Under the pieces are notes generated by a model. That model did no database searches, was not told where the DNA came from, and saw nothing but the letters and a program-made list of their open reading frames with translations. From positions 44,318 through 108,317 of the forward strand of contig JAUIHP010000008.1 in the NCBI GenBank assembly GCA_030431975.1: 64,000 nucleotides of DNA, given 5' to 3'. The position numbers were made by a program, and so were the translations under genes. This document shows, piece after piece, positions 18,760-40,786 of the stretch. The stretch comes from a bacterium. Lineage in GTDB: Bacteria > Eisenbacteria > RBG-16-71-46 > CAIMUX01. Numbering within the stretch: the stretch's first letter is position 1; every line of letters starts with the position of its first letter.

Positions 18760-21700
18760 TCAGTTGAGAACGAGGATTCTGAGGGTGGCCTGGTCGCTCA
18801 GTGTTTCGGCGCGAATGAAATAGACGCCGGCGGTGGCTCGTGCAGAGAACACGCTTTCCAAGTCGACGACAACATCAGCGCCGTCGTTGCTCAACGCTAT
18901 CCGGGTTGCATCGACTTCCCTTCCGCTTACGTCAAAGATTCTTAAGCGTGCTTCGTTCCAAGGACCGGATGTGCCGTTTAGCCGAATGACCGGCCAGTTC
19001 CTCGACGGCTGGGATGAGACCGGCTCGATCCAAAGTCGCTCCTTGAATCGGTCGTTCTGAGCGGTCCCGTCTGGGTCGACGGTGTCGTCGATCTGTCCGG
19101 CCAGTGCCTGAAGCAGCCTTCGAAGTTCGGGCGGCGCGGACTCTGGTAGTAGGACGAGCATCTCTTGTGCGGCTGCGACCATCGTGGGGGAATCCAAAGC
19201 ATCGCCGCCGTTCGCGACGTTCGCAGCGCCCACGGCATTCGCCCCGTTCGGGCCGTTCGTACCGTTCTCGTCACTCGCCCCGTTCGTGCCGCTAGCACCG
19301 TTCGCGCCGCTCGTGCCGTACGCACCGTTCTTGTCATTCGCGGCGTTAGTGCCGCTAGCACCGTTCTCGTCATTCGCGCTGTTCGTGCCGCTAGCACCGT
19401 TCTCGTCATTCGCGCCGTTCGTGCCGTTTGCACCGTTTTCGTTGTTCGCGCCGTTACTGTCATTTGCGTCACTGACGCCGCTCGCTCGACCTTCTGTGGA
19501 TTCAGGCTCACCCAACTCGGGATTGGCTCTCCGGCTGTCAACCGAACTCCCTCGCTGATCGGGCGCAAACCCCAGCACCCGCCGGTCCTTCTTCCAGTTC
19601 GACACCAGGCCGAGAATGTCCTTGGCATCGACCGTTCCCGAGCCGTCGCAATCGGCGTAGGCTGCCGACGGGACGTCCCACGGATCGACCCTGCTTGGCT
19701 CCCAGTCGAGACCGGACTCTCCCGACTGGCTTCGGGACGGCCCGGTCATGCCCCAGCTCCGTCCCAACGCGAGCAGGTCGCGGCCGTCGACGACCCCGTC
19801 GTTGTCCGCGTCCCCGGGCCATGTGAAGTACGGAATGGGTCCGGTCCACGCGGCCACGTGGTGTGACGGAGTTCCGCCGACGAAGATGAAATCGCCGCCA
19901 ACGTAGAGCGAGCCGTTCCAGGACTCCAATGCATAGACGGCTGACGGATCTTCCGGAGTCAGGGGCTCGACGCCTCCTCCAAACGGGTTCCAGGTCGACC
20001 CGTCCCAGACGGCGAGGTGGGATGCCGGCTTCCCGTCGGCGACGCTGAACTCTCCGCCGGCAACGAGTCGGCCGTCGTGAACGGTGACCGTGTGGACCGG
20101 TCCGTCGAAAGAGTCACCGACGGCCGTCCAATCGGTGCCGTTCCATCGGGCGCAGTTGGCCACCGCCGCGTCGCCGGCTCGGGTCAAAGATCCGGCGGCG
20201 ATCAGGTCTCCTTCGTAGATCGTGAAGTCGCGGACTTCTCCGTCGACGCCGCTTCCCAGAGGTTCGTACCCGAATCCGTTCCAGAGGACGATGCGCTGTG
20301 CGTCGACTCCACCTGCCGAGGCGAAGTCACCGGCAATGACGAGGTCGTCGTGATAGACCTGCAGCGCTCTACCGGTGTCGTCGAGGCCGGCGCCGAAGGG
20401 AGTCCATAACGAGCCATCCCACGTCGCAATCCGGCTGGCAGGACGGTTGCCGGCTCGACGAAACGCGCCGGTGGCCACGACCTGATCGTTCCAGACCGTC
20501 AGATCCCAGACGACGGCGGCGGCGCCACCACCGGGAGTGAGCCATTCGTTGTCGCTGCGGTAGGCGACATGACGACTGGCGCGTCCCTCGAAGAAGGTAA
20601 AGAGTCCCCCGGCGAAGATCTCTCCCGGTCGTGTGGTCGCAGTGTGTACGCGGCCGTTGAAGTTGGCTTCCAGATCAAGCCACTCCCCGCCGTTCCACAT
20701 CGAGCAACGCTCGCCCGCCCGACGTCCGGCCCGCTCGAAGTCTCCCCCGGCGATCAGAAAGCCATCTCCGGCCGTCAAGGCAAAGACGGGCCCGTCCATT
20801 CCGAATCCGACGCCGATCGGGTTCCATGACCGGCCGCCCCATGTCGCGAGGCCGTAGGCGCTGTGCCCACCCGCACGGATGAAGGTTCCTCCGGCAATCA
20901 GAGCGGAACCGAAGTTCTCAATATCGTTGATCTGTCCGTCCGAGACGATCCCGCTGGAAAACGATCTCCACGTCGTGCCGTCCCACCAGGCGATCTTGTT
21001 GATGCCCAGTCCCCCGACGTTACTGAAGGCGCCGGCGAGAACCAGGTCCTCGCCGTAGAACTCGATGTCCCAGATCGTGGGGTCGATTCCCGTGATTCGG
21101 GCTCCCATCGTTTCCCAACTTGCTCCGTCCCAGATTCCGAAGGACCGCAAGGGCACGTCCAGGTCATCCCTTCGGAAGTTTCCGCCGACGGCCAGTCCGG
21201 CATCCGTCGGGCGCAACGCCAGTACAACTCCGTCGACTCCTCCGTCAATGCTCGCCCAACCAGCGTCGGTCCAGTGGATGAGTCCTGAGGATGAAACGTC
21301 CTTCGTTCCGCGAAAACTACCTCCGACTGCGACCCCGCTTTCAAACGAAGCCAACGCTTCGACCGTCGCGGGAACTCCGTCGTACTGCGGAATCAGTCCT
21401 GCGCCCAGCCCAGTCCACTCGGTCCCATCCCAAACGGCGAAACCGTTGGCCAGTTGGTCTCCGGCGTGCGTGAATTCTCCTCCGACGAAGAGACGGTCGT
21501 CCTGGGCGAGGACGGTCCGGACGATGCAACGATCGGGGTCGTCGCGGTTTTCCAGTTCCGCGCCGAGTGCGGTCCAGCCCTCGGAACTGAGGAGGGCCAG
21601 GGACTGAGCCGGAGTCGAGTCGACCTGTCGGAACTGTCCGGCGGCGACGAGCTGTCCCTGGAAAATCGCCCATTCGAGAACGGGACCGTCGAAGTCCGCG

Positions 21701-21930
21701 AGAGCTTCCCATTCCGACCCGGTCCAGATGGCTGCGTTCGAGGCGCGGACCGACCCGGCCTGGTGGAAACTTCCCCCGATGAGGAGGCCGTCGTTCCAGG
21801 CCTCGAGCGCGTGGATTTCCCCGATCACGCCCTGAATGTCGAACGCGTCCGACCAGGAGGCCGCGCCTTCTCCGACTGCCGACGACGACCAGGCGAGGAG
21901 CAGGAGAATGACCCACGTTGCATCCCTCAT
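18760..21930 (-). CDS. secreted multi-blade beta-propeller protein with dockerin-like module, N/G/A-rich linker and T9SS-type (FlgD-Ig-like) C-terminal domain
   Basis: Signal peptide MRDATWVILLLLAWSSSAVG. More than 12 reiterations of the pattern GG-F-x-AG-x5-IA-WDG-x-W-x-LG. Two EF-hand-like segments, GDADNDGVVDGRDLLALGRSW and ADCDGSGTVDAKDILGLVSNW. Tail LRIFDVSGREV...AGVYFIRAE...LRILVLN. ATGA overlap with the upstream gene. Confidence 0.85.
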   Translation of the reverse strand: MRDATWVILLLLAWSSSAVGEGAASWSDAFDIQGVIGEIHALEAWNDGLLIGGSFHQAGSVRASNAAIWTGSEWEALADFDGPVLEWAIFQGQLVAAGQFRQVDSTPAQSLALLSSEGWTALGAELENRDDPDRCIVRTVLAQDDRLFVGGEFTHAGDQLANGFAVWDGTEWTGLGAGLIPQYDGVPATVEALASFESGVAVGGSFRGTKDVSSSGLIHWTDAGWASIDGGVDGVVLALRPTDAGLAVGGNFRRDDLDVPLRSFGIWDGASWETMGARITGIDPTIWDIEFYGEDLVLAGAFSNVGGLGINKIAWWDGTTWRSFSSGIVSDGQINDIENFGSALIAGGTFIRAGGHSAYGLATWGGRSWNPIGVGFGMDGPVFALTAGDGFLIAGGDFERAGRRAGERCSMWNGGEWLDLEANFNGRVHTATTRPGEIFAGGLFTFFEGRASRHVAYRSDNEWLTPGGGAAAVVWDLTVWNDQVVATGAFRRAGNRPASRIATWDGSLWTPFGAGLDDTGRALQVYHDDLVIAGDFASAGGVDAQRIVLWNGFGYEPLGSGVDGEVRDFTIYEGDLIAAGSLTRAGDAAVANCARWNGTDWTAVGDSFDGPVHTVTVHDGRLVAGGEFSVADGKPASHLAVWDGSTWNPFGGGVEPLTPEDPSAVYALESWNGSLYVGGDFIFVGGTPSHHVAAWTGPIPYFTWPGDADNDGVVDGRDLLALGRSWGMTGPSRSQSGESGLDWEPSRVDPWDVPSAAYADCDGSGTVDAKDILGLVSNWKKDRRVLGFAPDQRGSSVDSRRANPELGEPESTEGRASGVSDANDSNGANNENGANGTNGANDENGASGTNSANDENGASGTNAANDKNGAYGTSGANGASGTNGASDENGTNGPNGANAVGAANVANGGDALDSPTMVAAAQEMLVLLPESAPPELRRLLQALAGQIDDTVDPDGTAQNDRFKERLWIEPVSSQPSRNWPVIRLNGTSGPWNEARLRIFDVSGREVDATRIALSNDGADVVVDLESVFSARATAGVYFIRAETLSDQATLRILVLN

Positions 21931-22847
21931 TCCTCGATCTCCAGCATCGTGGCCAACACCACCGGAGGCGCCGAGTCGGCCGACTCGAACGCCACCACAG
22001 ATATAGGGAGCGCGACGGCCCCGGCGTCCCCAGCCAGAAAACGAAACGATCCGACGATCCCCGCTCCAGTCAGGGTCGGCCCGCCGCGAATCGACGAGAC
22101 GGCGACGGTCGTGACCTCCACACCTCCCATTGGAACATTCACCCCTCCAATTGGCACTTTCTCCCCTCCGATTGGCACTTCCTCCTCTCGGATTGGCACT
22201 TCCGCCTCCCGAGGCTCTGTCTGACAGAGGAAAAGCGTTTCCGCCCCGAAGAGGGATTCCGAGGTGCAGTCTTCGAGAGGCACCTCATGGACGAACTCGA
22301 TCACGACCCCGCTCAGTCCCGTCGTTCCTGTCACCCACAGGTTTAGTTCGAGTTCCTCTTCAGGCGACCAACGCGCACGCCGGGGTTCCCAACCGATGTA
22401 CGGCGATTTGGGAATGGACGTCGTGACGGACACGGAATCGGCATCGCTCTCATGGCCGGCCTGGTCGACAACCGTGAGGGCGTAAACGTAGTGGTGTCCG
22501 GGTGAGACCCACTCATCGGTCCAGGTCGTATCCGTTTGGACGAAGATCTCGTCCCAGAGAACGGTCTCCGCGGAGCCTTCTTCTGCGCGTGGCCGGCTGG
22601 ACGGCGGACCCGCGGAGTTCGACGGCGCGAAGCCTCCTCCGTGTTGGAGACTGCCGCGGCGGCTCCGGTAGACCCGGTAGCCGGCGAAGTCCGATTCCGG
22701 GGCGGGTTGCCAAGTGAGTTGTACGGAGAGTTCCGCGCCTGCGACGTCCAGTGCGGGACGAGACGGCGGGTCATCGGTCAGCGGCGGTTCACTCGACGAA
22801 GAGCAACCCGCGACAATGAGGAGGACGACAATGAAGACTCGATCCAT
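21927..22847 (-). CDS. lipoprotein with FN3 domain and C-terminal cohesin-like beta-sandwich (tentative)
   Basis: Trimmed to ATG 22847: MDRVFIVVLLIVAGC (lipobox). FN3 signature LTWQPAPESDFAGYRVYR...HYVYALTVVD. C-terminal LELNLWVTGTTGLSGVVIEFVHE...GAGIVGSFRFLAGDAGAVALPISVVAF resembles cohesin strands. Carries a 21-bp in-frame repeat (VPIGGEK, VPIGGVN, VPMGGVE). Confidence 0.75.
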   Translation of the reverse strand: MDRVFIVVLLIVAGCSSSSEPPLTDDPPSRPALDVAGAELSVQLTWQPAPESDFAGYRVYRSRRGSLQHGGGFAPSNSAGPPSSRPRAEEGSAETVLWDEIFVQTDTTWTDEWVSPGHHYVYALTVVDQAGHESDADSVSVTTSIPKSPYIGWEPRRARWSPEEELELNLWVTGTTGLSGVVIEFVHEVPLEDCTSESLFGAETLFLCQTEPREAEVPIREEEVPIGGEKVPIGGVNVPMGGVEVTTVAVSSIRGGPTLTGAGIVGSFRFLAGDAGAVALPISVVAFESADSAPPVVLATMLEIEE

Positions 22848-23037: not shown

Positions 23038-25614
23038 CTACTGGTCGGCTTGGCCGCTCACGACGTTGGAATCTGTCGACAAGCGCTGCACCGAATCGAT
23101 GTCCTGATCGTACACCACCAGCTTGAAGAAGTAGACCGTGGAGTCCGAGTCCGCCACGAAGACGGTGTGGCCGGTCTGCTCCCTCTGATCGAATTGTGCC
23201 GCCTGGATGGGGAAGCTGCTGTCGCTGGTTCCCTGGAGCAGTCGGTACTCGTCGAAGTCGGCGTCGTCGTTCTGTGACCAGGCCAGGCTGATGCTGGTCG
23301 AAGTCGTCCCGGCGATCCGCAGTTCGACCGGGGTCGGCGCGCGGTTGGCCGTGATGAGCGAGCGCTCATTCGAACCGGTCGATCCGCCGGCGTCATCCTC
23401 GACGAAAACGCGGTAGTAGTACTGCGTGTTGTCGAGGAGTCCGGTGTCGGTGAAGGCGGTCACGTCCTGATCGAAGATCGAGCGGACGGCGGTCGACGCC
23501 GTGCTCACACCGGGTGAGGTGTCCCGGAAGACGCGGTACTGCTCGAAGTCGTGGACGTTGCTGCCGCTCCAACTGAGAGCCACCGACGGTGTCTGCGCTC
23601 CCCCGTCCTCACTCGGTGTGGACAGAGTGACGGCGGGTGGGTCGGCGTTCTGGGTACGAACGGAGAGTTCCGTACTTCCGGCTGTGTTACCTCCACGGTC
23701 GCGGACGAAGACCCGGTAGAAGTACTCGGTGTTTTCGACGAGACCGCGGTCGAGATAGCTTGTGGCGTCGGCGTCGGCGGCCGTCACGATGAGCGGAGAG
23801 TCCTCGGAGATTCCCGCGTCGGTGTCCCGCCGGACCTCATAGCGATCGAAGTCCAGATCCGTGTTCTCGGACCAGTTCAAAAGGACGCTTGTTTCACCCA
23901 CCGCGCCCGGATCGAAGAGGCTGACCGCCGTGGGCAGCCGGTCCGGCGTCGTAGCGCTAACCACGTTACTGGCCGACTCCGCGCCGAACTGATCGACGAC
24001 CAAAACGACATAGTAGTAGACACGGTTCTCTTCGATGTCCGCTCGATCGGTGAACGTGGTCGTCGTGATGTCGGTCAGGCGCGCGACCTGATTCCGGTCC
24101 GGATCGTTGAGAACGTCGCTGTCCAGGGCGCGAACGATGCGGTAGGCCGCAAAGTCCTCGGCGAAACTGCGGCTGAAGTTCAGTGTGATCGCTTCCTCGG
24201 AGACTTCTGTCGGCGGCTCAAGGACGATCGGATCCGGCGGCAGGTTGGCGCGGGGGCGGCCGCTGACTTCGTTGCTCGGAGTCCCGTTTCCGAAGGAGTC
24301 GCGAACCTCCACGACGTAGTAGTACGTCTTGTCCGGGTCGAGATTCTCGTCCGTGTAGCTGGTCTGGGCGCGGGAGAAGATCTCGGTGAGCAGACGCTTG
24401 TTGTCACTCTCGAAGACGCCGGGATCGTCGCCACGATAGACGCGGTAGTTGTTGAAACGGAGTGCGTCGGGCGCCTGATTCCAGCTGAGCGTGAGTTCTT
24501 GCGGGCTGGCGCTGGTCGGCGCGGCCAGAGTGACCGCTTCGGGCAGGACCGTTACGGTGAGCCGTCCGGCGGCGAGCCGCGGCGAAGCCGTATTCCCGGC
24601 CTGATCGGTGAAGAAGCCGGTGACGGTGTCTTCATAGAGCTGCAGGTCGTTCTCCACTTCGTAGTCGGCCGAATAGACGCCGTCGTCCGCGGTGGCGTCA
24701 CCGGAAGTGCCGTCGTCACGAAGGGTCACCTGCCGACCGTTCTCTCCGAGTTCGACGGTCGCGGTGCCGAACGCTTCATCTGCATCGAGTCGGATGCTCA
24801 GCGTCTGTCCGGGGACGACGTCTGTCGGCGAGAAGGTCACCGAAACGATCTCGGCCCGTGTGTCCAAATTGATTTGATCGGAGACGACGGGAGACGCGTT
24901 GCCTTCGGCGTCGAAGAATTGGGCGTAGACGGTCTTGTTGCCGTCACCGGGCGTGACGGTCCAATTCAGCACGGAGCTGAACGGACGGACGGCCTCTGAC
25001 TCCAGGTCGGCGTTGTTCGCGATCTTCATTCCCTGCGTTCCGCCTGGGGCTTGCGAGGTCAGTACGACTTGTCGGCTGTTCGTGCTTTCCTGTCCGTCCC
25101 CGAGGACGATTCCGAAGATGGCCGGAACGGCGGTGATGGCGTTGGACCGCGAGCCTTCCAGGCCGTTGCGAAGCACGGTCGAAACCTGGAAGCGGTAGGT
25201 CGTCCCGTTGTCGAGTCCGGTCATGCGGAGCGGCGGCGCGTCGGTCGAGTCGGCCCGCGTGGCAAAGGCGTCACCCGGTTCGAAACGGTAGATCCGGTAC
25301 TTCTCGATCTCGTCCACTTCGTCGAAGTTGCGAATGCTCCAGTTGAGGGTGACGGCGCGGCTTTCGACCGAGGCGCTGAGCTCCGTCGGAACCGGAGGCG
25401 TCAGTCCGCTGACGTCCGGGTCGGCGGGATTGCGCTCATCGGCGAGCGAGTGATCTTCAGAGCACCCCGAAGCCAGGATCAGTCCCAGACATGCGACCGC
25501 GAGAAACGTCCGGGCAGAGAGTGACCGCAGCTCTGCCGGCATCTGCAGTTCCAGCAGGTTCAAGGTACGGGCGGCGTGAGCCTTCAGTGACTTCATGATC
25601 GATGACATCTCCAC
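23038..25614 (-). CDS. cell-surface lipoprotein with about 6 FN3 domains and a central Ig-like region
   Basis: Lipobox LILASGC. Repeated FN3 signatures (LNWS..YRIYR, LSWNQ..YRVYR..YYYVVEV, LNWSE..YEVRR..YFYRVFV, LSWSG..YRVFR..YYYRVFV, LAWSQ..YRLLQ). GTG or ATG start near 25614-25608 with SD GGAAGG. Confidence 0.85.
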   Translation of the reverse strand: MEMSSIMKSLKAHAARTLNLLELQMPAELRSLSARTFLAVACLGLILASGCSEDHSLADERNPADPDVSGLTPPVPTELSASVESRAVTLNWSIRNFDEVDEIEKYRIYRFEPGDAFATRADSTDAPPLRMTGLDNGTTYRFQVSTVLRNGLEGSRSNAITAVPAIFGIVLGDGQESTNSRQVVLTSQAPGGTQGMKIANNADLESEAVRPFSSVLNWTVTPGDGNKTVYAQFFDAEGNASPVVSDQINLDTRAEIVSVTFSPTDVVPGQTLSIRLDADEAFGTATVELGENGRQVTLRDDGTSGDATADDGVYSADYEVENDLQLYEDTVTGFFTDQAGNTASPRLAAGRLTVTVLPEAVTLAAPTSASPQELTLSWNQAPDALRFNNYRVYRGDDPGVFESDNKRLLTEIFSRAQTSYTDENLDPDKTYYYVVEVRDSFGNGTPSNEVSGRPRANLPPDPIVLEPPTEVSEEAITLNFSRSFAEDFAAYRIVRALDSDVLNDPDRNQVARLTDITTTTFTDRADIEENRVYYYVVLVVDQFGAESASNVVSATTPDRLPTAVSLFDPGAVGETSVLLNWSENTDLDFDRYEVRRDTDAGISEDSPLIVTAADADATSYLDRGLVENTEYFYRVFVRDRGGNTAGSTELSVRTQNADPPAVTLSTPSEDGGAQTPSVALSWSGSNVHDFEQYRVFRDTSPGVSTASTAVRSIFDQDVTAFTDTGLLDNTQYYYRVFVEDDAGGSTGSNERSLITANRAPTPVELRIAGTTSTSISLAWSQNDDADFDEYRLLQGTSDSSFPIQAAQFDQREQTGHTVFVADSDSTVYFFKLVVYDQDIDSVQRLSTDSNVVSGQADQ

Positions 25615-25626: not shown

Positions 25627-26424
25627 CTAAAACTTCAGACGGAGACCGACGCGCGTCCGGTCTTCGTTCCAGTCGGCGGCCATTCCCAGATCGGTGCCCG
25701 GTTTCTCGGGCAGGGCTCCGCGATCCATGGGCGGCTGCGTTTGATACCCCTCGGGACCGTTGAAGAGTGCGTCGAGGAAAGCGATCCCATAGATTGCTGC
25801 GGCGCCGAGCATGGCCCGCTCGACGTTGTCGAAGGCGTCATTGGCTTCGCGGTCACGCTCTTCCAGCTCGGCCCGAAGCACAGGAATGGCATTGATACTT
25901 CGCGACTCCCGGTAGACTTCCGCGACGCGGTCGAAGTCGTCGACCTTGTCCTGATAGATCTCCCAGAAAACATAGACGCCGATAAGAGACAGGCCCTGCG
26001 CCACGGAGAACGCAGTGCCCCGCGAGGGCTTCTCGTTGTAACGCTGGCCCCACCCCGGCAGGAGAAGGCTGCGACCCGCCGCAGCAAACCGCGACTTCTT
26101 CCGCAGCTTGATGTGCAAATCCTGAACGCCACTGGGCCCCAGAACCATCTGTCGGGTCCACGGCGAGTAGCCGGGAGCCCAGGCCCGGACCAGGTACAAA
26201 CCATCCAGGGGACGGAAGACACTCCAGGGCGTCGTTCCCACGAATTCGTACTGACCTTTGACCTCCACGGTGACCCCAGGCGGGTCCGAGGTCACGGAAA
26301 GATACGGAAGCGAGGCTCCCTCCAGGAGGAGCGGGTCCTCCTGGGCCGCGGCGCTTCCCGCGACGGTCAGGGTCACGATCCCCAAAAGGATCCACAGTCT
26401 TCTCAGCATCCTTGCCTCCACCAT
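25627..26424 (-). CDS. PEGA-domain envelope protein
   Basis: Signal peptide, VTSDPPGVTVEVKG...VGTTPW (PEGA), LLLPGWGQRYN motif, C-terminus RVGLRLKF (OMP-like terminal Phe). Confidence 0.7.
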   Translation of the reverse strand: MVEARMLRRLWILLGIVTLTVAGSAAAQEDPLLLEGASLPYLSVTSDPPGVTVEVKGQYEFVGTTPWSVFRPLDGLYLVRAWAPGYSPWTRQMVLGPSGVQDLHIKLRKKSRFAAAGRSLLLPGWGQRYNEKPSRGTAFSVAQGLSLIGVYVFWEIYQDKVDDFDRVAEVYRESRSINAIPVLRAELEERDREANDAFDNVERAMLGAAAIYGIAFLDALFNGPEGYQTQPPMDRGALPEKPGTDLGMAADWNEDRTRVGLRLKF

Positions 26425-26569: not shown

Positions 26570-27226
26570 CTAGGCCTTCTCGTTCCAGTAGTCCGCCTGG
26601 GCCTGTCCTTCGCCGCGGATCAACGTCCACGGTGTCAGCACGAAGACCTTGGCGTCGAGACCAAGCGAGACGCTGTCGACGTACTCGACATCGGCCCGAA
26701 TCCGAGCCGGCCAGTCGAGGCTCTTGCGTCCCCGAATCTGTGCCAAGCCGGTCACGCCCGGTTTGACCAGCAACCGCCTCTTCTGAAAATCATCGTATTG
26801 TTCGACCTGATACTCCAGCGTCGGCCGCGGACCAATCAGGCTCATCTCTCCCTTGAGGATGTTCAGGATCTGCGGCAGCTCGTCCAAACTCGTGGCGCGC
26901 AGCAGCTTCCCCATCCGCGTGACGCGCGGATCCCCGACTTCGACCAGGGCTCCGGCCCCCATCTTCGCGGCCCCGGGGACCATACTTCGGAACTTGTACA
27001 TCCGAAAGAGCTGCCCCATCTGACCGACCCGCTCCTGCACGAAGAAGGCCGGCCCCTTGGAGTCCAGCCGAACGAGGATGGCCAAGAGCAAGAAGAGCGG
27101 CCAGATCAGACACAGGACGAAGAACGCGAAAAGCCGGTCGAGCAGCGGCTTCAGGAACCGCGGATAGAACCCGGACGGAGGAAGCTGGCCCAGGCCGCCC
27201 GATTGCGCGGAGTGTTCCGTGCTCAT
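26570..27226 (-). CDS. small monotopic phosphoglycosyl transferase (bacterial sugar transferase, PglC/WbaP-C-like)
   Basis: [28 protein letters not shown] (re-entrant helix), [43 protein letters not shown]. Canonical motifs are intact. Confidence 0.92.
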
Positions 27227-33364: not shown

Positions 33365-33997
33365 TTAGGCCGGTTCTTCTGGGAAGAAACTCGGCAATAG
33401 CGGTGCGAACTCGCCGACCATCCGGTCGATCCACGAGCCGGCGGTCTTCTCGTCCGGGATCTCCAACGTGGAGATCCGGACAAAGGCGCCGAACGAACGG
33501 TTTTCCCGCAATCCCTGTAGGAACATCTGATCCCGAAACGTCCGGACTTCAGCCAAAGCCTTCTGGCCCGCTGTGTACCAGAAGTAGTTCACTTTCTCCA
33601 CCCGATCTCCGCGCACCGCCCGGAAGCGTTTCATCGGAACCGGGCCCAATGCAGTCTCCAGGGTCTCGTCGGGCAGAAACTCGACTTCGAAACCCTGGGA
33701 TTGATAGCAGAGAATCGGATCATGTGCACCGAGACGTGCATTTTCGAAGTACACGACCATCAGCCACAGCGGAACGCCGTCCGGTCTCTCGTAAAGCCTG
33801 GATAGAAACGCGTCCGCGGCAAGGTCGTCGACGACGGTCTGATCCAGTCCGAGTTCCGTTCCCGGAAGCCCGGCCAGACTCGCGGGGCAGGTCTCCAGGT
33901 GCGTCTCCCCCATCGATGTCGGAGGAAGAAGCGCCACGTACGCACCGAGCCCGAGCAACAGAAGCAGGGAGAAACCGATCTTGGCGCGGCTCAGCAT
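33365..33997 (-). CDS. EpsI-family exosortase-associated protein
   Basis: N-terminal anchor and HDPILCYQSQGFE (H-x-P-x2-C motif of EpsI). Its start overlaps the exosortase stop by 7 nt. Confidence 0.8.
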   Translation of the reverse strand: MLSRAKIGFSLLLLLGLGAYVALLPPTSMGETHLETCPASLAGLPGTELGLDQTVVDDLAADAFLSRLYERPDGVPLWLMVVYFENARLGAHDPILCYQSQGFEVEFLPDETLETALGPVPMKRFRAVRGDRVEKVNYFWYTAGQKALAEVRTFRDQMFLQGLRENRSFGAFVRISTLEIPDEKTAGSWIDRMVGEFAPLLPSFFPEEPA

Positions 33998-34974
33998 CGC
34001 AGCAACCTTTGCGCAAGGAACAGAAGGCCGAGTGCCGGAACGAGCATGACGAGTCCGCCGACATCATGGAAAAGCCCGGACGCGGTCTCTGTGTCGATGA
34101 TGGCGGCGACCAGACAAATCGAGGTGATCCGGGCCACGTTGACGACGACCGCGATGGGAAGCGCCGAGGCAAAGAGCAGAAGCCGCTGCCACCAGGAACC
34201 TTTGCCGAAGTATCCGAAGATCGCGCCCAGTGCCATGAGGGCGATGAGATAGCTCATCCCGCTGCAGGCATTCTCGACGGTGAGTTGGCCGCTCGGAAAG
34301 TAGAGGTCCATTCCACGCTGGACGACCGCGGCTCCCATGGCCTGGGACAGCTTCACCGAGTAGTCGGCTGCGACCTCCTTCAGACGAAAGCTCACGCCGT
34401 TCATGAAGATGGGAAGAGCCGGCACCATGAAGAGCAGAAAGACGATCGGAAAGGCGACACGGCGCAGGATCCGCGCGCCGAACCAGGTCCAGACCAATCC
34501 GGCGACGGTCAGGACGAAGGCCCACCCTTGAAAGATGGTCACGTCGCCGCGAATTCCGATGACCTGCAGAAGAACGCCGGCGGTCAGGAGCGGCAGCCCA
34601 AACCACGACGACTGCATGGGCGTACGAAGAAGATCGTCCCTCCGGTGCCAAACCAGAAAGATGGAGAGCGGAAGAACGAAGAACCCGTGCGAGTAGTTGT
34701 CGTTGTTCCACCAGGCCAGGACCAGCGCATGAAAGGTTTGATAGAAACCCGCTGCCAAAAGAAGGATGGCAACCAGTCCGGCCGGCTGAAACCACTTCGG
34801 GATATCCACGCCCGGCCGCGGTTCGTCGGCTCGATTCGTTCCCTCGCCCTTGCCGCCTTCTCCCTTCTTTTCTGTCGGTTTCGGGGACGCCGCGGGCGCG
34901 GCCGGTCCCTTGAACCGGTCGGAAACCGCGGGCCCGGCCGCGGAGGAGAAGTTTCCTGACGAGGCGCTATCCAC
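33991..34974 (-). CDS. exosortase (EpsH/Xrt family)
   Basis: WWNNDNYSHGFFVLPLSIFLVW, catalytic-Cys region ENACSGMSYLIAL, VVVNVARITSI. About 8 TM segments. The N-terminal ~55 aa are a G/K/P-rich extension, so the true start (GTG 34974) is uncertain. Confidence 0.88.
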   Translation of the reverse strand: MDSASSGNFSSAAGPAVSDRFKGPAAPAASPKPTEKKGEGGKGEGTNRADEPRPGVDIPKWFQPAGLVAILLLAAGFYQTFHALVLAWWNNDNYSHGFFVLPLSIFLVWHRRDDLLRTPMQSSWFGLPLLTAGVLLQVIGIRGDVTIFQGWAFVLTVAGLVWTWFGARILRRVAFPIVFLLFMVPALPIFMNGVSFRLKEVAADYSVKLSQAMGAAVVQRGMDLYFPSGQLTVENACSGMSYLIALMALGAIFGYFGKGSWWQRLLLFASALPIAVVVNVARITSICLVAAIIDTETASGLFHDVGGLVMLVPALGLLFLAQRLLRC

Positions 34975-37174
34975 GCGCCTGCTTCCTGTTCGAGTAGTTG
35001 TAGCCGTAGGACTTGTAGCTGTAGTAGTACGGCAGCGCGGAGGTCACGTCGTTCAGGAGCACCCCGGCCAGGTTGTCCCGGAACTCCTTCTGCATCTCGA
35101 CGCTGCGTCGAACCATCTCGCGCGGCGTCACGCCGGCCTTGACCACGATGAGGACTGCGTCGACCTCCGGTCCGATGACCAGAGGATCCGGAACCGGCAG
35201 GTTCGGCGGAGAGTCGATGATGACCCGGTCGAAGCGGTTGCCCAGTTCGTCCAGGAACCACCGGACCCGGTCCGTCGTGATGCACTCCCCGACTTCCTCG
35301 TCACGGACCATCGGCAGAATGGTCAGGTTCGGGCGGATCCAGGTCTGACCGACCGACTCATTCCATTCACGACGCTGCAGGATGGTTCCGACGTGGCTCT
35401 CGCCGACCTCGAGACCAATCTTCGCGGCCACGGTGGGGCGGCGAGCGTCCATGTCGACCAACGCGATTCGTTCGTCCGACAGCTCCTTGGCCATGGTCAG
35501 CGCCAGACACACACTCGCGGTGGACTTTCCTTCTTCGGACCGCGCACTCGTCAATAGGATCGAACTCGGACTTTCGTTGCCGTAACGAAGCAGTGCCAGT
35601 GCGCTCTTTCTGAACTCCTGATAGCCCGGAGAGTCGGCGAGAAATCGCTCGAAGGCCGCGCGTTGCTTGTCCGGGTCCCGGCCGTCCGAGGCGATGCCTT
35701 CCAGCTCCGGAATGGTCCCGACGACGCGCACTCCGATTCGTTCCTCCGTCTCTTTGATGTCACGCAGGGACTGATCGTGCTGTTCGAGCACGAACGCCCC
35801 GAGGACACCGAGAACGAGACCGCCAATGAAGGAGAGGATGATCATGGGCGTACGACGCGGCTTCACCGGCTTCAGCGGATGCTGGGGCGGATCGATGACG
35901 GAGATCTTCTCACCCGCGGAGCTTTCCTCCAGAGCCAGCGAGAACTGCGCCGTGGTGATCTGCTGTTCAAAGGCCTCGAAGATGCGTCGTGCCTGCTCGA
36001 CTTCCTGGACGAGACGATTCTCTTCCAGGCTGGCCCCGGGCATCGACGTAACCGATCCCTGGTACTTGCGGATCTCCCGGTCGAGCTCGGCCGCGCGCGT
36101 CTGGGCCAGTCGCATCTGCACGCTGGCCGCCAGATAGTCGAGAGCGGCCGGGTTGGGAGCTTCCTGGGCCGCAGCCGCGCGAGCTTCCGAAACAAGGCGG
36201 GCCAACTGAATGGCGAGGTTCTCCGGAGACTGGTCCCGCGAAGCTCCGAGGAGACTTTGACGGACGTACTCTCTTTCCAGGTTCTCACCGCGTGAAACCA
36301 CAGCGCCGAGGGCACCCGAACGGAGCTTGGCGTCGAGGCTCTGCGAGGAAACACCCATCCCCTGTCCGGCGGCCTGCGTTGCCTGGCCGCCGAAACGCGC
36401 GATGTCGGCGCGAGCCTGGCGACGAAGTTCGTCGGCTTCGGAGAGGTTGTCCGGGCCAACCAAGCCCGGCGTCACCGAACGCGAGGCCTGGCCGCGACGG
36501 AAGCGTTCGAGGCGGGCCTCCGCTTCGTCCAACTCTCGCTTGGCATCGAGCAACTGCGTCTGACCGAACTCTTCACCGACGCGGATGGCTGCCGTTTGGG
36601 AACGACGATTGGCCTCGATGATTCCGACGACGAGGTTGCTGACCAGCCGGTAACAGCGTCCGGGGTCATAGTCGTTCGCTTGGACAATGATGCGATTGTC
36701 GTCCTCGGCGCGGACCCGGATGACCTGACGAAGGGTGCGATGGAGACGCAGCTCGACCAGTTCGTCCACCGTCAGGTCGGGATACTTCTTCTGGTTCTTC
36801 TCGGCCCAGTTGCGGGTTGACGTGTCGTTACGCATTCCCGTGGCGTCGATGACGCTGTTGAGGAAGTCGGCCGACTGGATCTGCGTTTCCATTCGCATCA
36901 GCCGTTCCTGCAACGACGGGTTGGTCACAAAGGGTTCGAGCTGACGGTTGAGCTGGGTGGGCAGCTCGACCATGAGAGCGGCAGAGCACGAATAAACCGG
37001 CTTCATGATCCGCGGCATGGTGACGACGATGCCGGCGATTCCGGCCAACAGGGTCGGCACGATGACCAGCCACTTGCGGCGCCAGAGCAACTGGAGATAG
37101 GCCCGGAGATCGACCGTCTCCTTCATCGGAGGCCGTTGCTCGGCGGAAGCGTTCGGATATTCGGGGTTTTGCAT
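34967..37174 (-). CDS. polysaccharide co-polymerase / BY-kinase (Wzc/GumC/EpsF-EpsG-like fusion)
   Basis: Wzz-type N-terminus (LRAYLQLLWRRKWLVIV), long coiled-coil periplasmic region, second TM, Walker A SARSEEGKST, A-prime LVDMDARRP, Walker B VIIDSPP, Tyr-rich tail LPYYYSYKSYGYNYS. Confidence 0.9.
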   Translation of the reverse strand: MQNPEYPNASAEQRPPMKETVDLRAYLQLLWRRKWLVIVPTLLAGIAGIVVTMPRIMKPVYSCSAALMVELPTQLNRQLEPFVTNPSLQERLMRMETQIQSADFLNSVIDATGMRNDTSTRNWAEKNQKKYPDLTVDELVELRLHRTLRQVIRVRAEDDNRIIVQANDYDPGRCYRLVSNLVVGIIEANRRSQTAAIRVGEEFGQTQLLDAKRELDEAEARLERFRRGQASRSVTPGLVGPDNLSEADELRRQARADIARFGGQATQAAGQGMGVSSQSLDAKLRSGALGAVVSRGENLEREYVRQSLLGASRDQSPENLAIQLARLVSEARAAAAQEAPNPAALDYLAASVQMRLAQTRAAELDREIRKYQGSVTSMPGASLEENRLVQEVEQARRIFEAFEQQITTAQFSLALEESSAGEKISVIDPPQHPLKPVKPRRTPMIILSFIGGLVLGVLGAFVLEQHDQSLRDIKETEERIGVRVVGTIPELEGIASDGRDPDKQRAAFERFLADSPGYQEFRKSALALLRYGNESPSSILLTSARSEEGKSTASVCLALTMAKELSDERIALVDMDARRPTVAAKIGLEVGESHVGTILQRREWNESVGQTWIRPNLTILPMVRDEEVGECITTDRVRWFLDELGNRFDRVIIDSPPNLPVPDPLVIGPEVDAVLIVVKAGVTPREMVRRSVEMQKEFRDNLAGVLLNDVTSALPYYYSYKSYGYNYSNRKQARG

Positions 37175-37205: not shown

Positions 37206-38246
37206 CTAATTGTTGTTCTCGTCGTCGTTGTTCGTCAGCACGTCACGAATGAGGATCAGATTGAGAAGATCCCGCGATGCGTCCAGCGTCCCGCGAAGCG
37301 CGGTCAGCGCGACCTGTGCGACGTTCGGGTCCCGTATCGGGACATGGATCGAGTCACCCGGGCGAATCTCGGGTCCGCCGCGTCCGCTCTGCAGTTCGCG
37401 TTCCAGGTCCACCCTCATGAGGAAGGTGCCCCCGCTCTGATCGGCGGCCAGGACCTCGATCTCGTTCCAGTTGGCGACCGGAGAAAGGCCCCCCGCCACC
37501 GCCAAAGCCTGGAAGAGGGTCATGTTGGAACTGACTCCGATCGGGCCTGACGCACCGACTGCGCCCATGACGTAGGCCGAGCCGGCTCCCAGTCCGCCAC
37601 CCACTCCGCCGCCGACCGCGCCCGCGCCGCCCGGGACGATGATGAGGTCGTCGCGCTGCAGGCCGGGCAGGCCCCTGAGGTCACCCGTTTCCACAGCTCG
37701 GGAAATGTCGACCGGGATCGTCCGCTGAGCGTCCCCATCCCTACGTACGATACGGACGCCGGAAAGGTCCGCCGTCGGTCCCAGTCCGCCGGCCTGTGCC
37801 AGCAGGTCCATGATCTCCGGGATCTTTTCGAATGAGTAGCGGCCGGGACTGGCCACTTCTCCGGCCAGGAAGACCTTCTGGCTGTTGAAGGCAACGACGC
37901 TGATCGTGACCTGAGCCGTTCGGCGCAGGTTGTTGTAGATCTCACGCTCCAGATCGCGGGCCAGGGTCGTGGTCGTCTTCCCTGCCGCCATGACATCTCC
38001 CAGCGGCGGGAAGCTGATCGTCCCGTTGACACGCACGACCACGGTCCGGCTGAGCTGCGGATTCTCCCAGACGCTGACGCCCAGGACGTCGTCGGGGCCG
38101 AGCACGTACTCCTCGTCCGCGCGAGCCGATCCCGCCAATCCCGCCAAAAGGAGAGTGACGAACGTGCAAAGGCCGACGAGAACCTGCAGCGGTCTCCAGC
38201 CGTTCCACGAGGCTTGATGCGATGTGCTTTCCCTAGCCGCAATCAT
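37206..38246 (-). CDS. polysaccharide export protein (Wza/EpsE-like: Poly_export + SLBB)
   Basis: Trimmed to ATG 38246 (ATGA overlap). Signal peptide, then YVLGPDDVLGVSVWENPQLS...VNGTISFPPLGDVMAAGKT. Confidence 0.88.
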   Translation of the reverse strand: MIAARESTSHQASWNGWRPLQVLVGLCTFVTLLLAGLAGSARADEEYVLGPDDVLGVSVWENPQLSRTVVVRVNGTISFPPLGDVMAAGKTTTTLARDLEREIYNNLRRTAQVTISVVAFNSQKVFLAGEVASPGRYSFEKIPEIMDLLAQAGGLGPTADLSGVRIVRRDGDAQRTIPVDISRAVETGDLRGLPGLQRDDLIIVPGGAGAVGGGVGGGLGAGSAYVMGAVGASGPIGVSSNMTLFQALAVAGGLSPVANWNEIEVLAADQSGGTFLMRVDLERELQSGRGGPEIRPGDSIHVPIRDPNVAQVALTALRGTLDASRDLLNLILIRDVLTNNDDENNN

Positions 38247-40786
38247 TTCTCGACCTTCTCCTCTCCCCGCAGCAGTTGCGGGATCGTCTTTCGGATGGTC
38301 TCCATGTCCATTCCGAGTCCGCCAAATTTTCCGTAGTAGCCGTCGTAGAGTTCGGCCAGGTCGCGGTCTTCGTCCTGGCTGCCGTTGGCGAAGACCTGGC
38401 CCAGCCCCACGAGTCCCGGTCGGCACGAGTGGATGTAGGCCATGGTCCAGTCTTCCGTGTAGCTCGCTTCCTCGGCCAGTCGGGCACTGGGGCCCACCAG
38501 GCTCATCTGGCCGCGAATCACGTTCCAGAGATAGAGGACGCGGTCCAAACGCCAGCGACGCATGAAACCGAGCAGCGCCTTCTGACGGCCGTTGGGCTGT
38601 CCCTCCGACTGAACGCGGTAGCAAACGAAGATCGGTCCGGGAAGGTCGCGTTGGCGACGGTCGTTTCCGCGGCGGTCGATCGGAATGGCGGCGCCGTCCT
38701 CACCCCGCCGGCGACGGTCCTGCCTCCGGCGATTTCGTCCCAAACGCTCTTCGCGAACGAAACGGACCCGAGCGGATCCGGCCAGGCGATAGAGCAGCAG
38801 GCTGAGGAGAACGACCGGCATCAGGAGAAGGAGCAATCCGCCCGCGACCGCGACGTCGACGAAGCGTTTGACCTTGGGCTCCTTCTTCTGCCGGCGCACC
38901 CTACGCCGGTCCGGAGCCTCTTCGCCGAGAGTGACCGCTTCCCGCTGGTCCGGAAGCTGCGCGACCTCGATCTGACGGTACTCCGGAACAAGGGTGCCGA
39001 GCCCCTCCCGAAGTTCTTCGGCGCTGGCGTGGTGAGCCATGGCCACCAGTTGATCGACCTGCTTGCGGACGGACTCCGGCTCGACCGGATCCAGTTCCCA
39101 GTGGAAGATCTTTGCGTGCTTGGTCATCCGGGTCTGTTCGGAGTCGGAGAGCAGTTCCTCTTCCAGCTTCTCGCCCGGACGCAGACCGATGAAGCGAATG
39201 GGAATGTCGATGCCCGGACGCAGTCCCGAAAGCCGGATAAGCTGTTCGGCCACGTCGACGATGCGAACCTGCTCGCCCATGTCGAGGACGAAGACGTTGC
39301 CGCTCTCGCCGAGAAGTCCCGCCTGGATGACGAGCTGACTCGCCTCCGGAATGGTCATGAAATAACGGCGCGCTTCCGGATGGGTCACGGTCAGCGGGCC
39401 GCCTCCGGCAAGCTGACGTTTGAAGATGGGCAGCACCGAGCCTTCGCTTCCCAGTACGTTTCCGAAACGAACGGCGCAGAACTTCGTGTTCGACTTGCCG
39501 TCCATGGCCATGCCCTGAAGCACGATTTCGCAGGCGCGTTTCGACGCCCCCATGACGTTGGTCGGATTGACCGCCTTGTCCGTCGAGACAAGGACGACGG
39601 TCGCCACGCCGTGCCGGGCCGCCGCCTGGGCCACGTTGCGGGTGCCGTGAATGTTGTTGAGGATCGCTTCCCGCGGCGCGTTCTCGAGCAGGTTGACGTG
39701 CTTGTGCGCGGCCGCGTGAAAGACGAACTCCGGCTCGTGGATGCGCATCAGTTCGTCGACGCCGAACTCGTCCTTGACGTCCCCGACGGCGTAGAGCACT
39801 TCCAGCTCGCCGTGGTGTTCCGCCATCTCGAGACCCAGATAGGTCAGGCGATTCTCGTTGTGGTCGACGGCGACCAGCTTGGCCGGTTTGAACTTCGCGA
39901 GCTGGCGGCAGAGTTCCGAACCGATGGAGCCGGCAGCGCCCGTCACCAGAACCGTCTCTCCCCCGATTCGGTGGGAGATGCCTTCGAAGTCGACGGAGAC
40001 GGGATCACGTCCGAGGAGGTCCTCGATCCGGATCTCGCGGACCTGGCCGAGAGCGCCCTTGCCCCGGGTGTAGTCGGAGAGCGCGGGAACGGTACGGCAG
40101 GTAACGCCCGCTTCCTGGCAGTAGGTCACGATCTGTCGGACGAGCCCGGCCGGCGCGGATGGGGCCGCAATCAGGACTTCGTTGATCCGCCGCTCTTCGA
40201 TGAGATGAGGGATGTCGATCATCGCGCCGAGAACGGGCGTGTTCTGAATCTTCCGTCCCTTCTTGGCCGGGTCGTCATCGACGAAACCGATCGGGGCTTC
40301 CTGCCGCCTCTGCAGCTCGTTGGCCAGCGTGGCTCCGACATCGCCTGCCCCCGCGATGAGCACCCGCCCGTCGCTGGGAGCGAACCGGCGTCCCTGCGCG
40401 TTGCGGAGCATCTTCCACATGAGACGGCTGGCCAGAATCAGGCCGGTTCCCAGCATCCAAAGCAGGATGACGACGCTTTTGGGGAACGGCTGCTGGCCCG
40501 GAATGAGGTTGAGCAGGAAGACAACGAAAAACCCGAAGAACATCGTCCGGAAGATGGAGAGGAACGTCGAGGTTCCGGCGTATCGCCACAGGGTCCGGTT
40601 GACTCCGCTCAAGTTGAGCAGGATCAGGATGCCAAGGATGTAGAACGGGGCGACCCGTCCATACGAGTCGAGAAAGCGTGCGGGGATGTCACCGTCGAAG
40701 CGGAGCGCAAGCGAGGCCACGCCAGCGGCCGCCAGGAGCCCCGCGTCGATTAGATTGAGAACGACAAGTTTCCATCGGCGCGTCAA
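38243..40786 (-). CDS. fusion: membrane-anchored PglF/CapD/WbpM-like UDP-sugar 4,6-dehydratase + C-terminal degenerate phosphoglycosyl-transferase domain
   Basis: 4 N-terminal TMs, VLIAGAGDVG, VLVTGAAGSIGSEL, STDKAVNPTNVMGASKR, VRFGNVLGSEGSV (CapD). Then KRFVDVAVAGGLLLLLMPVVLL plus RLDRVLYLWNVIRGQMSLVGPSA (PGT-like, with DE changed to DR and PRP changed to PSA) and an Arg-rich insert RNRRRQDRRRRGED...RRGNDRRQRD. Confidence 0.85.
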   Translation of the reverse strand: MTRRWKLVVLNLIDAGLLAAAGVASLALRFDGDIPARFLDSYGRVAPFYILGILILLNLSGVNRTLWRYAGTSTFLSIFRTMFFGFFVVFLLNLIPGQQPFPKSVVILLWMLGTGLILASRLMWKMLRNAQGRRFAPSDGRVLIAGAGDVGATLANELQRRQEAPIGFVDDDPAKKGRKIQNTPVLGAMIDIPHLIEERRINEVLIAAPSAPAGLVRQIVTYCQEAGVTCRTVPALSDYTRGKGALGQVREIRIEDLLGRDPVSVDFEGISHRIGGETVLVTGAAGSIGSELCRQLAKFKPAKLVAVDHNENRLTYLGLEMAEHHGELEVLYAVGDVKDEFGVDELMRIHEPEFVFHAAAHKHVNLLENAPREAILNNIHGTRNVAQAAARHGVATVVLVSTDKAVNPTNVMGASKRACEIVLQGMAMDGKSNTKFCAVRFGNVLGSEGSVLPIFKRQLAGGGPLTVTHPEARRYFMTIPEASQLVIQAGLLGESGNVFVLDMGEQVRIVDVAEQLIRLSGLRPGIDIPIRFIGLRPGEKLEEELLSDSEQTRMTKHAKIFHWELDPVEPESVRKQVDQLVAMAHHASAEELREGLGTLVPEYRQIEVAQLPDQREAVTLGEEAPDRRRVRRQKKEPKVKRFVDVAVAGGLLLLLMPVVLLSLLLYRLAGSARVRFVREERLGRNRRRQDRRRRGEDGAAIPIDRRGNDRRQRDLPGPIFVCYRVQSEGQPNGRQKALLGFMRRWRLDRVLYLWNVIRGQMSLVGPSARLAEEASYTEDWTMAYIHSCRPGLVGLGQVFANGSQDEDRDLAELYDGYYGKFGGLGMDMETIRKTIPQLLRGEEKVEK

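Follow-up and report, generated by a model that had tools for sequence, protein, structure and literature searches.

To our knowledge, exosortase systems occur widely, yet their biochemistry is almost unexplored. Wza–Wzc (OPX/PCP-2a) machines belong to Wzx/Wzy-dependent pathways, for example those of the E. coli group 1 capsule and colanic acid, and the Campylobacter Pgl pathway (PglF, PglE, PglD, PglC) makes UDP-diNAc-bacillosamine. Exosortase and polysaccharide genes come together in the XrtA/PEP-CTERM–EpsH exopolysaccharide (EPS) system (Haft et al. 2006, BMC Biol 4:29, as cited in PMC7468200). Cargo of type IX secretion (by the T9SS) is anchored via a linking sugar of the Wbp/Vim pathway, and the same source speculates that exosortases attach their cargo to a modified sugar (PMC7468200). 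Non-cellulosomal cohesin–dockerin modules have also been described (Peer et al. 2009, cited in PMC8542988), and a cellulosome-like, T9SS-tailed complex has been inferred in Cloacimonadota (PMC8542988). Here we analyze a minus-strand gene block, positions 18760–40786, in a 64-kb stretch of DNA (hereafter the window; contig JAUIHP010000008.1) from the Eisenbacteria, a lineage with no cultured member and no published description of this locus; literature searches combining Eisenbacteria with exosortase or PEP-CTERM found nothing. We read the block, with a probability of roughly 0.7, as an XrtA-type exosortase/EPS operon typical of Candidatus Eisenbacteria, with an accessory gene pair and an add-on module. 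It seems to be a known system in a lineage-specific form rather than a new anchoring mode for exosortase cargo.

Both the listing of open reading frames (ORFs) and their translation show an unbroken minus-strand run. A sequence-only reading of the same DNA had counted 17 consecutive coding sequences; the continuity holds but the number is 16 (G1–G16), because G1 is a single 847-aa fusion in the window and in its orthologs. The nine start/stop overlaps and two sizeable gaps that it listed are all present: the six 4-nt overlaps each read ATGA or GTGA on the minus strand, three longer overlaps span 8, 7 and 10 nt, and only two gaps exceed 100 nt (145 nt at 26425–26569 and 190 nt at 22848–23037). 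The other junctions measure 12–31 nt, and GC content is even along the window (0.60–0.66). Matches to Pfam and NCBIfam agree with its view of the upstream half as an exosortase/EPS module, down to the single calls (Wza-like, Wzc-like, exosortase, EpsI, TPR lipoprotein, PrsK-like N-terminal domain, GT4, acyl carrier protein, NeuD/PglD acyltransferase and small polyprenyl-phosphate sugar-phosphate transferase, PGT). In the downstream half they likewise bear out the PEGA(+DUF5683) protein, the FN3-repeat lipoprotein and a Dockerin_1 domain (24.5 bits against a cut-off of 22.9).

Related loci were collected by exact-protein look-ups, a genome-collection scan with the FN3 protein (the 11 closest sequences serving as query) and a metagenome scan with the exosortase, and were annotated by BLAST against the window proteins. 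This gave 11 distinct Eisenbacteria-type loci: the window, L002, L003 (=L014), L005 (=L011), L010, L012/L035, L013, L015, L024, L031 and L040. All 11 have the order G1–Wza–Wzc–exosortase–EpsI–G6–TPR lipoprotein–(G8 and/or Wzy_C)–(sugar genes)–PEGA/DUF5683–FN3 lipoprotein, in which the sugar genes vary among GT4, acyl carrier protein, acyltransferase, DegT and PGT. Gene order is thus kept in 10 further distinct loci, far beyond chance. A convergent S41 peptidase gene lies downstream of the FN3 gene in all nine loci whose flank is visible, and in L031 the PGT and PEGA genes overlap by 29 nt and the PEGA and FN3 genes by 4 nt. In the metagenome-assembled genomes (MAGs) that carry L005/L011 and L010, two ORFs stand in place of one exosortase gene, and L010 also has broken Wzc, PEGA, propeller and S41 genes; these breaks look like assembly indel errors rather than true pseudogenes.

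G4 scores above the cut-offs of the exosortase (EpsH) family (PF09721, 213.4 against 25.7; TIGR02602, 170.9 against 105.55; TIGR04178, 67.8 against 23) and is a member of it. The subfamily, which the sequence-only reading had left to the NCBIfam models, is borderline: XrtA (TIGR03109) is the best-scoring subfamily model in every clade member tested (190–215.5 bits), but the window protein does not reach its cut-off (206.7 against 208). The relatives score 215.5 (L003), 207.3 (L002), 203.9 (L030), 200.7 (L031) and 190 (L029). By these profile scores the clade straddles the XrtA cut-off, with G4 at the boundary. About 35 exosortase homologs are 45–70% identical to G4, the next best being 39% identical, and the named members of the closer group are Candidatus Eisenbacteria MAGs. 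C237 (ACSG), R282 (NxxR) and H303, which we take from archaeosortase and exosortase studies to be the catalytic residues, do not vary across 20 homologs with identities as low as 30%, and for this reason we see no sign of exosortase decay. EpsI is encoded by a separate gene that overlaps the exosortase gene by 7 nt, with the Wza and Wzc genes directly upstream; on domain evidence, the exosortase, accompanied by EpsI (G4, G5), keeps its catalytic Cys, Arg and His.

The genes around the exosortase include an OPX protein (Wza), a PCP-2a protein (Wzc with kinase) and an initiating PGT. G2, which shares an ATGA overlap with G1, has the XrtA/PEP-CTERM export protein TIGR03027 as its best NCBIfam match (130.6 bits against a cut-off of 180). 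G3 matches TIGR03007 (123 bits) and TIGR03018 (88 bits), both below cut-off, and its translation contains Walker A (EEGKST), DxDxR and DSPP motifs and a Tyr-rich tail. The GT4 enzyme G9 matches TIGR04063, a PEP-CTERM/XrtA system glycosyltransferase (99 bits). G1 combines PF02719 (366 bits) and PF13727 with PF02397 (73.5 bits over residues 640–839), a fusion present in all orthologs. Its PGT-like domain (38243–38900) has LDR for the catalytic LDE in all six orthologs, together with an Arg-rich insertion of ~31 aa and loss of KFRSM and GPRP. All motifs are retained in G12, the small stand-alone PGT, which has an intact DE dyad and shows LDELPQ and GPRP in the alignment. No gene in the 64-kb window was annotated by Pfam with a Wzx, Wzy or WaaL domain, in agreement with the sequence-only reading; Wzy_C genes occur in L005, L012/L035, L013, L015, L024, L029, L031 and L040.

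The domain content directly supports a Pgl-like synthesis of an amino-sugar primer. G1 (PglF-like), the DegT aminotransferase at 8889–10013 (PglE-like) and G11 (PglD-like) with the acyl carrier protein G10 would make a bacillosamine-like amino sugar, which G12 would load onto a lipid carrier and the GT4 enzyme G9 would extend; Wzc (G3) and Wza (G2) would then export the polymer. G10 starts at GTG 28121 with GGAAGGA ahead of it, overlaps G11 at GTGA and has orthologs of 79–83 aa. The translational coupling of G10 and G11 suggests that the sugar receives an acyl group borne by the carrier protein, other than acetyl. Just past the convergent S41 peptidase gene, the minus strand has a further block of nucleotide-sugar genes (6365–16337). 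It encodes three epimerase/dehydratases along with DUF92, a UDP-sugar dehydrogenase and a GFO/IDH/MocA oxidoreductase, as well as a hexapeptide acetyltransferase and DegT, and amounts to a Wbp-like gene set for 2,3-diacetamido uronic acids; L003 and L005 keep it next to the locus.

Table 1. Genes of the block and other features of the window (window positions).
Feature	Positions	Strand	Description	Matches and remarks
G1	38243..40786	-	Membrane-anchored PglF/CapD-like nucleotide-sugar 4,6-dehydratase + degenerate PGT-like C-terminal domain, 847 aa	
G2	37206..38246	-	Wza-like outer-membrane polysaccharide export protein, 346 aa	PF02563 + two SLBB
G3	34967..37174	-	Wzc-like chain-length determinant fused to tyrosine autokinase, 735 aa	PF02706, PF13807
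G4	33991..34974	-	Exosortase with low-complexity N-terminal extension, 327 aa	PF09721, TIGR02602, TIGR03109
G5	33365..33997	-	EpsI, exosortase-associated protein, 210 aa	TIGR02914 61.9 > 42.8; PF11984 82 bits
G6	32483..33340	-	Conserved six-helix membrane protein, 285 aa	No Pfam or NCBIfam match
G7	30948..32492	-	TPR lipoprotein, lipobox LLSAC, 514 aa	TPR_6, TPR_14; YbgF-like C-terminus
G8	29455..30951	-	Kinase-less PrsK-like protein, 9 membrane helices, weak GAF, 498 aa	
G9	28136..29458	-	GT4 glycosyltransferase, 440 aa	PF13579, PF00534; WcaI-like
G10	27867..28121	-	Acyl carrier protein, 84 aa	PF00550 42 bits
G11	27223..27870	-	NeuD/PglD-family sugar N-acyltransferase, 215 aa	TIGR03570 186.4 > 160.8; PF17836 PglD_N
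G12	26570..27226	-	Small PglC-type polyprenyl-phosphate sugar-phosphate transferase, 218 aa	PF02397 204.9 bits
G13	25627..26424	-	Secreted or membrane PEGA + DUF5683 protein, 265 aa	PF08308 31 bits
G14	23038..25614	-	FN3-repeat lipoprotein, lipobox LASGC, choice-of-anchor X motif, ~856 aa	
37-nt repeat	22852-23003		Hairpin-forming repeat, four tandem copies in G14–G15 gap	Tandem Repeats Finder, 4.1 copies, 92% match
G15	21927..22847	-	Lipoprotein, lipobox VAGC, one FN3 + divergent cohesin domain, 306 aa	
G16	18760..21930	-	Secreted beta-propeller + dockerin + Asn/Gly/Ala spacer + T9SS-like C-terminal domain, 1056 aa	
S41 peptidase gene	16444-18075	+	Convergent gene	Bounds block past G16
Divergent gene	41087-41977	+		Bounds block beyond G1
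DegT aminotransferase	8889-10013	-		Nearby, outside block
PAS histidine kinase + sigma-54 response regulator	2-3131	-		

The accessory pair consists of G13 and G14. The match of G13 to PF18935 (25 bits) is just under cut-off, its orthologs match both families, and an ATG at 26409, after GGAGG, is its likelier start. G14 scores 106 bits for fn3, in at least four stretches, and 37.8 against 25 for NF041940; it has 18 full-length orthologs (46–64% identity) and shorter homologs in Zixibacteria and Krumholzibacteria. The lipobox cysteine is invariant in the family alignments of both G14 and G15, which upholds the lipoprotein anchoring proposed for the downstream proteins by the sequence-only reading. 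A G13 ortholog always adjoins the FN3 gene, and none of the 11 Eisenbacteria-type loci lacks the pair, which three more distant exosortase loci (L008, L029 and L030) have as well. The pair has moved upstream of G1 in L029 and into a divergent operon in L030, and is still linked to the locus in both. The synteny of the whole downstream block with the exosortase gene, which the sequence-only reading had put forward as a check, thus holds for PEGA–FN3 (11/11) but not for the cohesin-like and propeller genes (3/9).

The pair also occurs in other polysaccharide loci. In the Krumholzibacteria locus L006 it has Wza/Wzc on one side and, on the other, a PGT, a histidine kinase and a sigma-54 regulator, and eight Zixibacteria-type loci (L016–L023) encode, in this order, a PorV-like outer-membrane protein, a PGT, PEGA/DUF5683, FN3, a G6-like protein (in 6/8, after the FN3 gene) and a sigma-54 regulator. 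No exosortase gene was found within 10 kb of the pair in L006 and L016–L023, and for that reason we do not regard G13 and G14 as exosortase cargo. From this gene context the pair appears to track a PGT-primed, sigma-54-regulated polysaccharide system from which the exosortase is locally absent in some lineages, and it looks like conserved machinery. G13 and G14 would be an old envelope pair of that system, tentatively with a scaffold or regulatory role. A literature search for DUF5683 returned a single paper with the term, on nematode receptors. Elsewhere in the window, two signal-peptide proteins without a family match are encoded on the minus strand (7471–8484 and 62143–63069), one of which has the aromatic C-terminal residue typical of outer-membrane beta-barrels.

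Three further genes separate EpsI from the sugar genes. G6 has six hydrophobic helices; its gene comes after that of EpsI throughout the Eisenbacteria-type loci and also in L008, L029, L030 and L082. G7 is analogous to PrsT, and its position is conserved in all related loci. G8 matches TIGR02916 (40 bits) over residues 15–360, covering the N-terminal half of the profile only, and the profile of the G8 family aligns to residues 5–344 of the full PrsK of L008. HisKA and HATPase domains were not found in members of the G8 family, and the GAF match is weak. Complete PrsK and PrsR occupy the same slot in L008 and L029, and a Wzy_C/TIGR03097-like protein takes it in L005 and L012. G8 and Wzy_C both occur in L013, L015, L024, L031 and L040, and G8 occurs without Wzy_C in the window, L002, L003 and L010, which form the window subclade. 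A relationship of G8 to Wzy/WaaL was rejected, as profile–profile comparison with the Wzy_C-slot proteins of L005 and L012 gave a match probability of 0.1.

The block contains no PrsR gene and so lacks the PrsK/PrsR pair of the XrtA system. The PAS kinase and sigma-54 regulator at 2–3131 may stand in for it. This regulator is 55% identical to one adjoining the Krumholzibacteria PEGA–FN3 pair, and relatives carry both the kinase and the regulator comparably far from the locus, the regulator in L013, L015 and L024. G6, the TPR lipoprotein G7 and the kinase-less G8 would be sensing or assembly accessories of the lineage.

The add-on module is formed by G15 and G16, whose genes share an ATGA overlap. 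Pfam Cohesin gave no match in G15 or in the C-terminal domains of its family. The C-terminal domain profile of eight family members had a single match in the PDB, cohesin 5g5d, and the proteins P0390, P0392 and P0393, matched by the G15 profile, carry PF00963. An AlphaFold model of G15 (pLDDT 73.6, pTM 0.68) gave cohesins as all of its top 39 Foldseek matches (E 2.7e-5, TM 0.5–0.66). Profile, relatives and model together thus back the FN3 plus cohesin-like lipoprotein proposed by the sequence-only reading. A 21-nt tandem repeat of ~4 copies within G15 (22123–22212) encodes a VPIGGEK-like insertion in a cohesin loop; orthologs lack this insertion, and the model has low confidence there.

G16 begins with a Rax2/DUF5122-type propeller (PF12768, 69.7 bits), followed by the dockerin (residues 705–773) with calcium loops DADNDGVVDGRD and DCDGSGTVDAKD. 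Repeats of 18, 36 and 63 nt (19202–19455) encode an NGANG-type spacer rich in Asn, Gly and Ala between the dockerin and the C-terminal domain; it gives spurious collagen-like matches and is missing from the L003 ortholog. The T9SS-type C-terminal domain claimed from the sequence alone stands in part: residues 995–1055 of 1056 align with true T9SS tails at the extreme C-terminus and share the D..G+.V and GVYF motifs, but G16 stays below the curated cut-offs for T9SS sorting domains (TIGR04183, PF18962, PF13860). A DUF3604-like protein encoded at 45488–47080 (minus strand) has an FlgD_ig-type C-terminal domain (34.3 against 27), and T9SS-type tails are therefore in use in this genome; homologous neighbors lie upstream of the locus in L001 and L002. 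The minus-strand genes at 49196–54047 form a gliding-type ABC cluster: an ABC-2 permease and an ABC ATPase are encoded with DUF4340 and a GldG-like auxiliary protein whose C-terminus, a membrane helix followed by RRR, bears a superficial likeness to a sorting tail.

G15 and G16 occur together in the window, L003 and L010, three of the nine loci with a visible operon end, and are jointly absent from the other six (L005, L012/L035, L013, L015, L024, L040). On two unrelated 42%-GC contigs, L027 and L028, an FN3–cohesin lipoprotein gene adjoins a gene for a dockerin and T9SS tail, with dockerins 37–40% identical to that of G16; no exosortase gene was found on these short (5.4–5.7 kb) contigs. Judged by this distribution, G15/G16 would be a self-contained two-gene module that one subclade gained at the 3′ end of its operon. 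The data show co-inheritance of the two genes, with their ATGA overlap and recurrence of the pairing on L027/L028; binding of the G15 cohesin to the G16 dockerin is predicted. The propeller protein would be exported by the T9SS and dock via its dockerin onto the cohesin of lipid-anchored G15, and the two would ride on operon transcription as a co-expressed surface decoration.

Scans for promoters and terminators bear on how the block is transcribed. No convincing sigma-54 site (TGGCAC-N5-TTGC) was found upstream of G1 or in the two gaps. A scan of 18000–28500 for sigma-70 promoters and terminators found none in the gaps, with counts no higher than in shuffled sequence, and the sole strong hairpin of this region is a shared terminator at 18113–18141. 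In the G14–G15 gap, a 9-bp GC hairpin directly after the G14 stop precedes the 37-nt repeats, each unit of which forms a 7-bp hairpin. The RNA of this stretch folds with z = -2.97; its hairpins lack a T-tract, and no terminator was called. A 61-nt tandem repeat forms two arrays on the same strand, 18176–18640 and 44055–44548 (7.6 and 8.1 copies, 83–86% match), which bracket the entire locus, one starting ~120 nt past the G16 stop and the other lying ~3.3 kb upstream of G1. Repeat arrays (37-nt and 61-nt) therefore flank the G15–G16 add-on on both sides. The 61-nt repeat was not found in any related locus, had no Rfam match and folds no better than shuffles (z = 0.05), and an Rfam search of 17900–23200 gave a chance-level match only. 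CRISPR was ruled out as an identity of the 61-nt arrays, in which whole units repeat without spacers.

The sequence-only reading had found no PEP-CTERM tail among the coding sequences called in the window, and a C-terminal scan extends this to every ORF of the 64 kb. The same scan recovered four true tails in related loci as a positive control. The first screen, with a hydrophobic fraction of at least 0.6, would miss the tail in L031; a relaxed rerun was again negative for the window. The neighborhoods of the closest relatives, L002, L003 and L010, also contained no PEP-CTERM tail. L031 encodes a 221-aa protein with the C-terminal tail VTPVPEPATLVLLGTGLLGMCVRLRPSKK, its gene lying ~400 nt upstream of the G1 ortholog. 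The exosortase, G8 and Wzy_C of L031 are closest to those of L015, from a MAG named Candidatus Eisenbacteria, and L031 shares with the window an upstream AI-2E-transporter/macro-domain context. In L030 a PEP-CTERM gene (TIGR02595, 27.3 against 16) is the first gene of the PEGA–FN3 operon, and in L008 two (30.2 and 28.3 against 16) follow the PEGA–FN3 pair. The metagenome scan showed a PEP-CTERM gene within 10 kb in ~8 of ~30 unrelated exosortase loci. As only about a quarter of such loci have one so near, its absence near the locus of the window is to be expected; it is unremarkable and is not evidence for a genome-wide lack. The exosortase would process ordinary PEP-CTERM proteins encoded elsewhere in the genome, like those beside the relatives' loci.

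These data bear directly on the model that grows out of the sequence-only reading, in which the exosortase/EPS machine of this lineage no longer serves PEP-CTERM proteins and is coupled to a surface layer of lipoproteins, a cohesin–dockerin pair and a T9SS-tailed protein. We consider this improbable. It is favored by the missing tails in the window and near its three closest relatives, by the absence from the same subclade's locus of the PrsK kinase half, PrsR and Wzy_C, and by the position of G15/G16, which is that of the two PEP-CTERM genes in L008. However, L031, L030 and L008 combine the same exosortase clade and PEGA–FN3 pair with canonical PEP-CTERM genes beside the locus, which leaves the notion of a new combination in which surface proteins replace this cargo unsupported; L031 does so with the same kinase-less G8. 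The catalytic residues are invariant, and only about a quarter of unrelated loci have a PEP-CTERM gene nearby in any case. Nor does the layer fare better as a cargo substitute: other phyla have PEGA–FN3 without an exosortase nearby, G15/G16 are missing from 6/9 loci, and their pairing recurs elsewhere. Alternatively, the block might be two or three independent head-to-tail units (EPS/exosortase, PEGA–FN3 and G15–G16) without a functional link. The only sizeable gaps coincide exactly with these two boundaries, the second opening with the GC hairpin and four repeat hairpins, and G15/G16 form an independent module elsewhere. Yet PEGA–FN3 keeps its link with the exosortase/EPS genes at exosortase identities as low as 40% and through the rearrangements of L029 and L030, both genes overlap their upstream neighbors in L031, and neither gap has a called promoter-like or terminator-like site; a block of unlinked units is therefore unlikely, if less so than a change of cargo.

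Two further interpretations concern the PEGA/DUF5683, FN3 and G6 proteins. One makes them the missing polymerase or flippase of a self-contained, non-canonical assembly pathway, as the window has no recognizable Wzx or Wzy and the set travels with a PGT in three phyla. Against this, seven Eisenbacteria-type loci have Wzy_C together with PEGA–FN3, G6 has six helices only, and none of the G6, PEGA and FN3 proteins has detectable similarity to known flippases or polymerases; we give the idea hardly any credence. The other would make the three an obligatory, undescribed envelope module of PGT-primed, sigma-54-regulated systems, whether or not these include an exosortase, in Eisenbacteria, Zixibacteria, Krumholzibacteria and related lineages, with a rewiring in the window subclade to co-expression of a cohesin-docked T9SS propeller as surface partner after loss of Wzy_C, the PrsK kinase half and the neighboring PEP-CTERM gene. 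We hold this to be a long shot, about as doubtful as the independent units.

The XrtA-type operon typical of Candidatus Eisenbacteria remains our preferred reading, and several observations weigh against it. G4 falls 1.3 bits short of the XrtA cut-off (TIGR03109, 206.7 against 208), and every ORF of the window came out of the six-frame scan without a PEP-CTERM tail. The polymer pathway is incomplete as seen, with one glycosyltransferase only and without the Wzy_C gene that seven other Eisenbacteria-type loci have and the window subclade lacks. The T9SS tail of G16 is sub-threshold (TIGR04183, 17.7 against 23) with no Pfam match, and no component of the T9SS machinery was found within the window. 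Co-transcription across the 145-nt and 190-nt gaps is predicted, and the latter contains five hairpins. The role suggested for PEGA/DUF5683, FN3 and G6 comes from gene neighborhood alone.

The result is a lineage-wide map of the Eisenbacteria exosortase operon, and it removes a tempting but unsupported claim of alternative anchoring of exosortase cargo. It shows that a kinase-less PrsK occurs naturally in an Eisenbacteria locus. G6, the PEGA/DUF5683 protein and the FN3 lipoprotein are three uncharacterized families and constant partners of polysaccharide loci in several candidate phyla; together with the minimal cohesin–dockerin–T9SS pair, which is amenable to in vitro testing, they are the main interest of the locus.

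Compared with known systems, the locus resembles several in part. Like the T9SS linking-sugar pathway (PMC7468200), it has Wbp-like genes (8889–14519; UDP-sugar dehydrogenase, GFO/IDH/MocA oxidoreductase, DegT and hexapeptide acetyltransferase) adjoining a locus with a T9SS-tailed protein, but the window yielded no homolog of VimA/VimE/VimF or PorU/PorV and the link is by neighborhood only. With the Cloacimonadota complex (PMC8542988) it shares a cohesin and a dockerin outside any cellulosome, in a bacterium of the FCB group and with a T9SS-type C-terminal domain. Here, however, the pair is minimal and one-to-one, with overlapping genes; the cohesin sits on a small FN3 lipoprotein rather than a scaffoldin, and it is the dockerin protein that has the T9SS tail, with a beta-propeller as its head and not an enzyme of recognizable fold.

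The likeness to Wzx/Wzy-dependent pathways lies in the Wza-like OPX protein, the Wzc-like PCP bearing Walker motifs and a Tyr-rich tail, the PGT initiator and the WcaI-like GT4 enzyme; the difference is that Wzx and Wzy are not recognizable in the window, whereas relatives have a Wzy_C/TIGR03097-like gene. As in the Campylobacter Pgl pathway, there are a membrane-bound PglF/CapD-like dehydratase, a DegT aminotransferase, a PglD_N acyltransferase and a small single-helix PglC-type PGT, but here the acyltransferase is translationally coupled to an acyl carrier protein, the aminotransferase lies outside the block and a degenerate PGT-like domain forms one protein with the dehydratase. To the XrtA system the window is linked by an EpsH-family exosortase with EpsI inside an EPS locus. 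Its export, chain-length, kinase and glycosyltransferase genes best match NCBIfam models of the “PEP-CTERM/XrtA system”, it has a TPR lipoprotein and a PrsK-type membrane domain, and relatives have full PrsK/PrsR and PEP-CTERM genes in their loci. It departs from that system in scores at or below curated cut-offs, in the fusion of the chain-length determinant to the kinase, in the loss of the kinase half of PrsK, with no PrsR gene in the locus and none for PEP-CTERM in the 64 kb, and in the fixed, lineage-specific genes for G6, PEGA/DUF5683 and the FN3 lipoprotein that its cluster carries.

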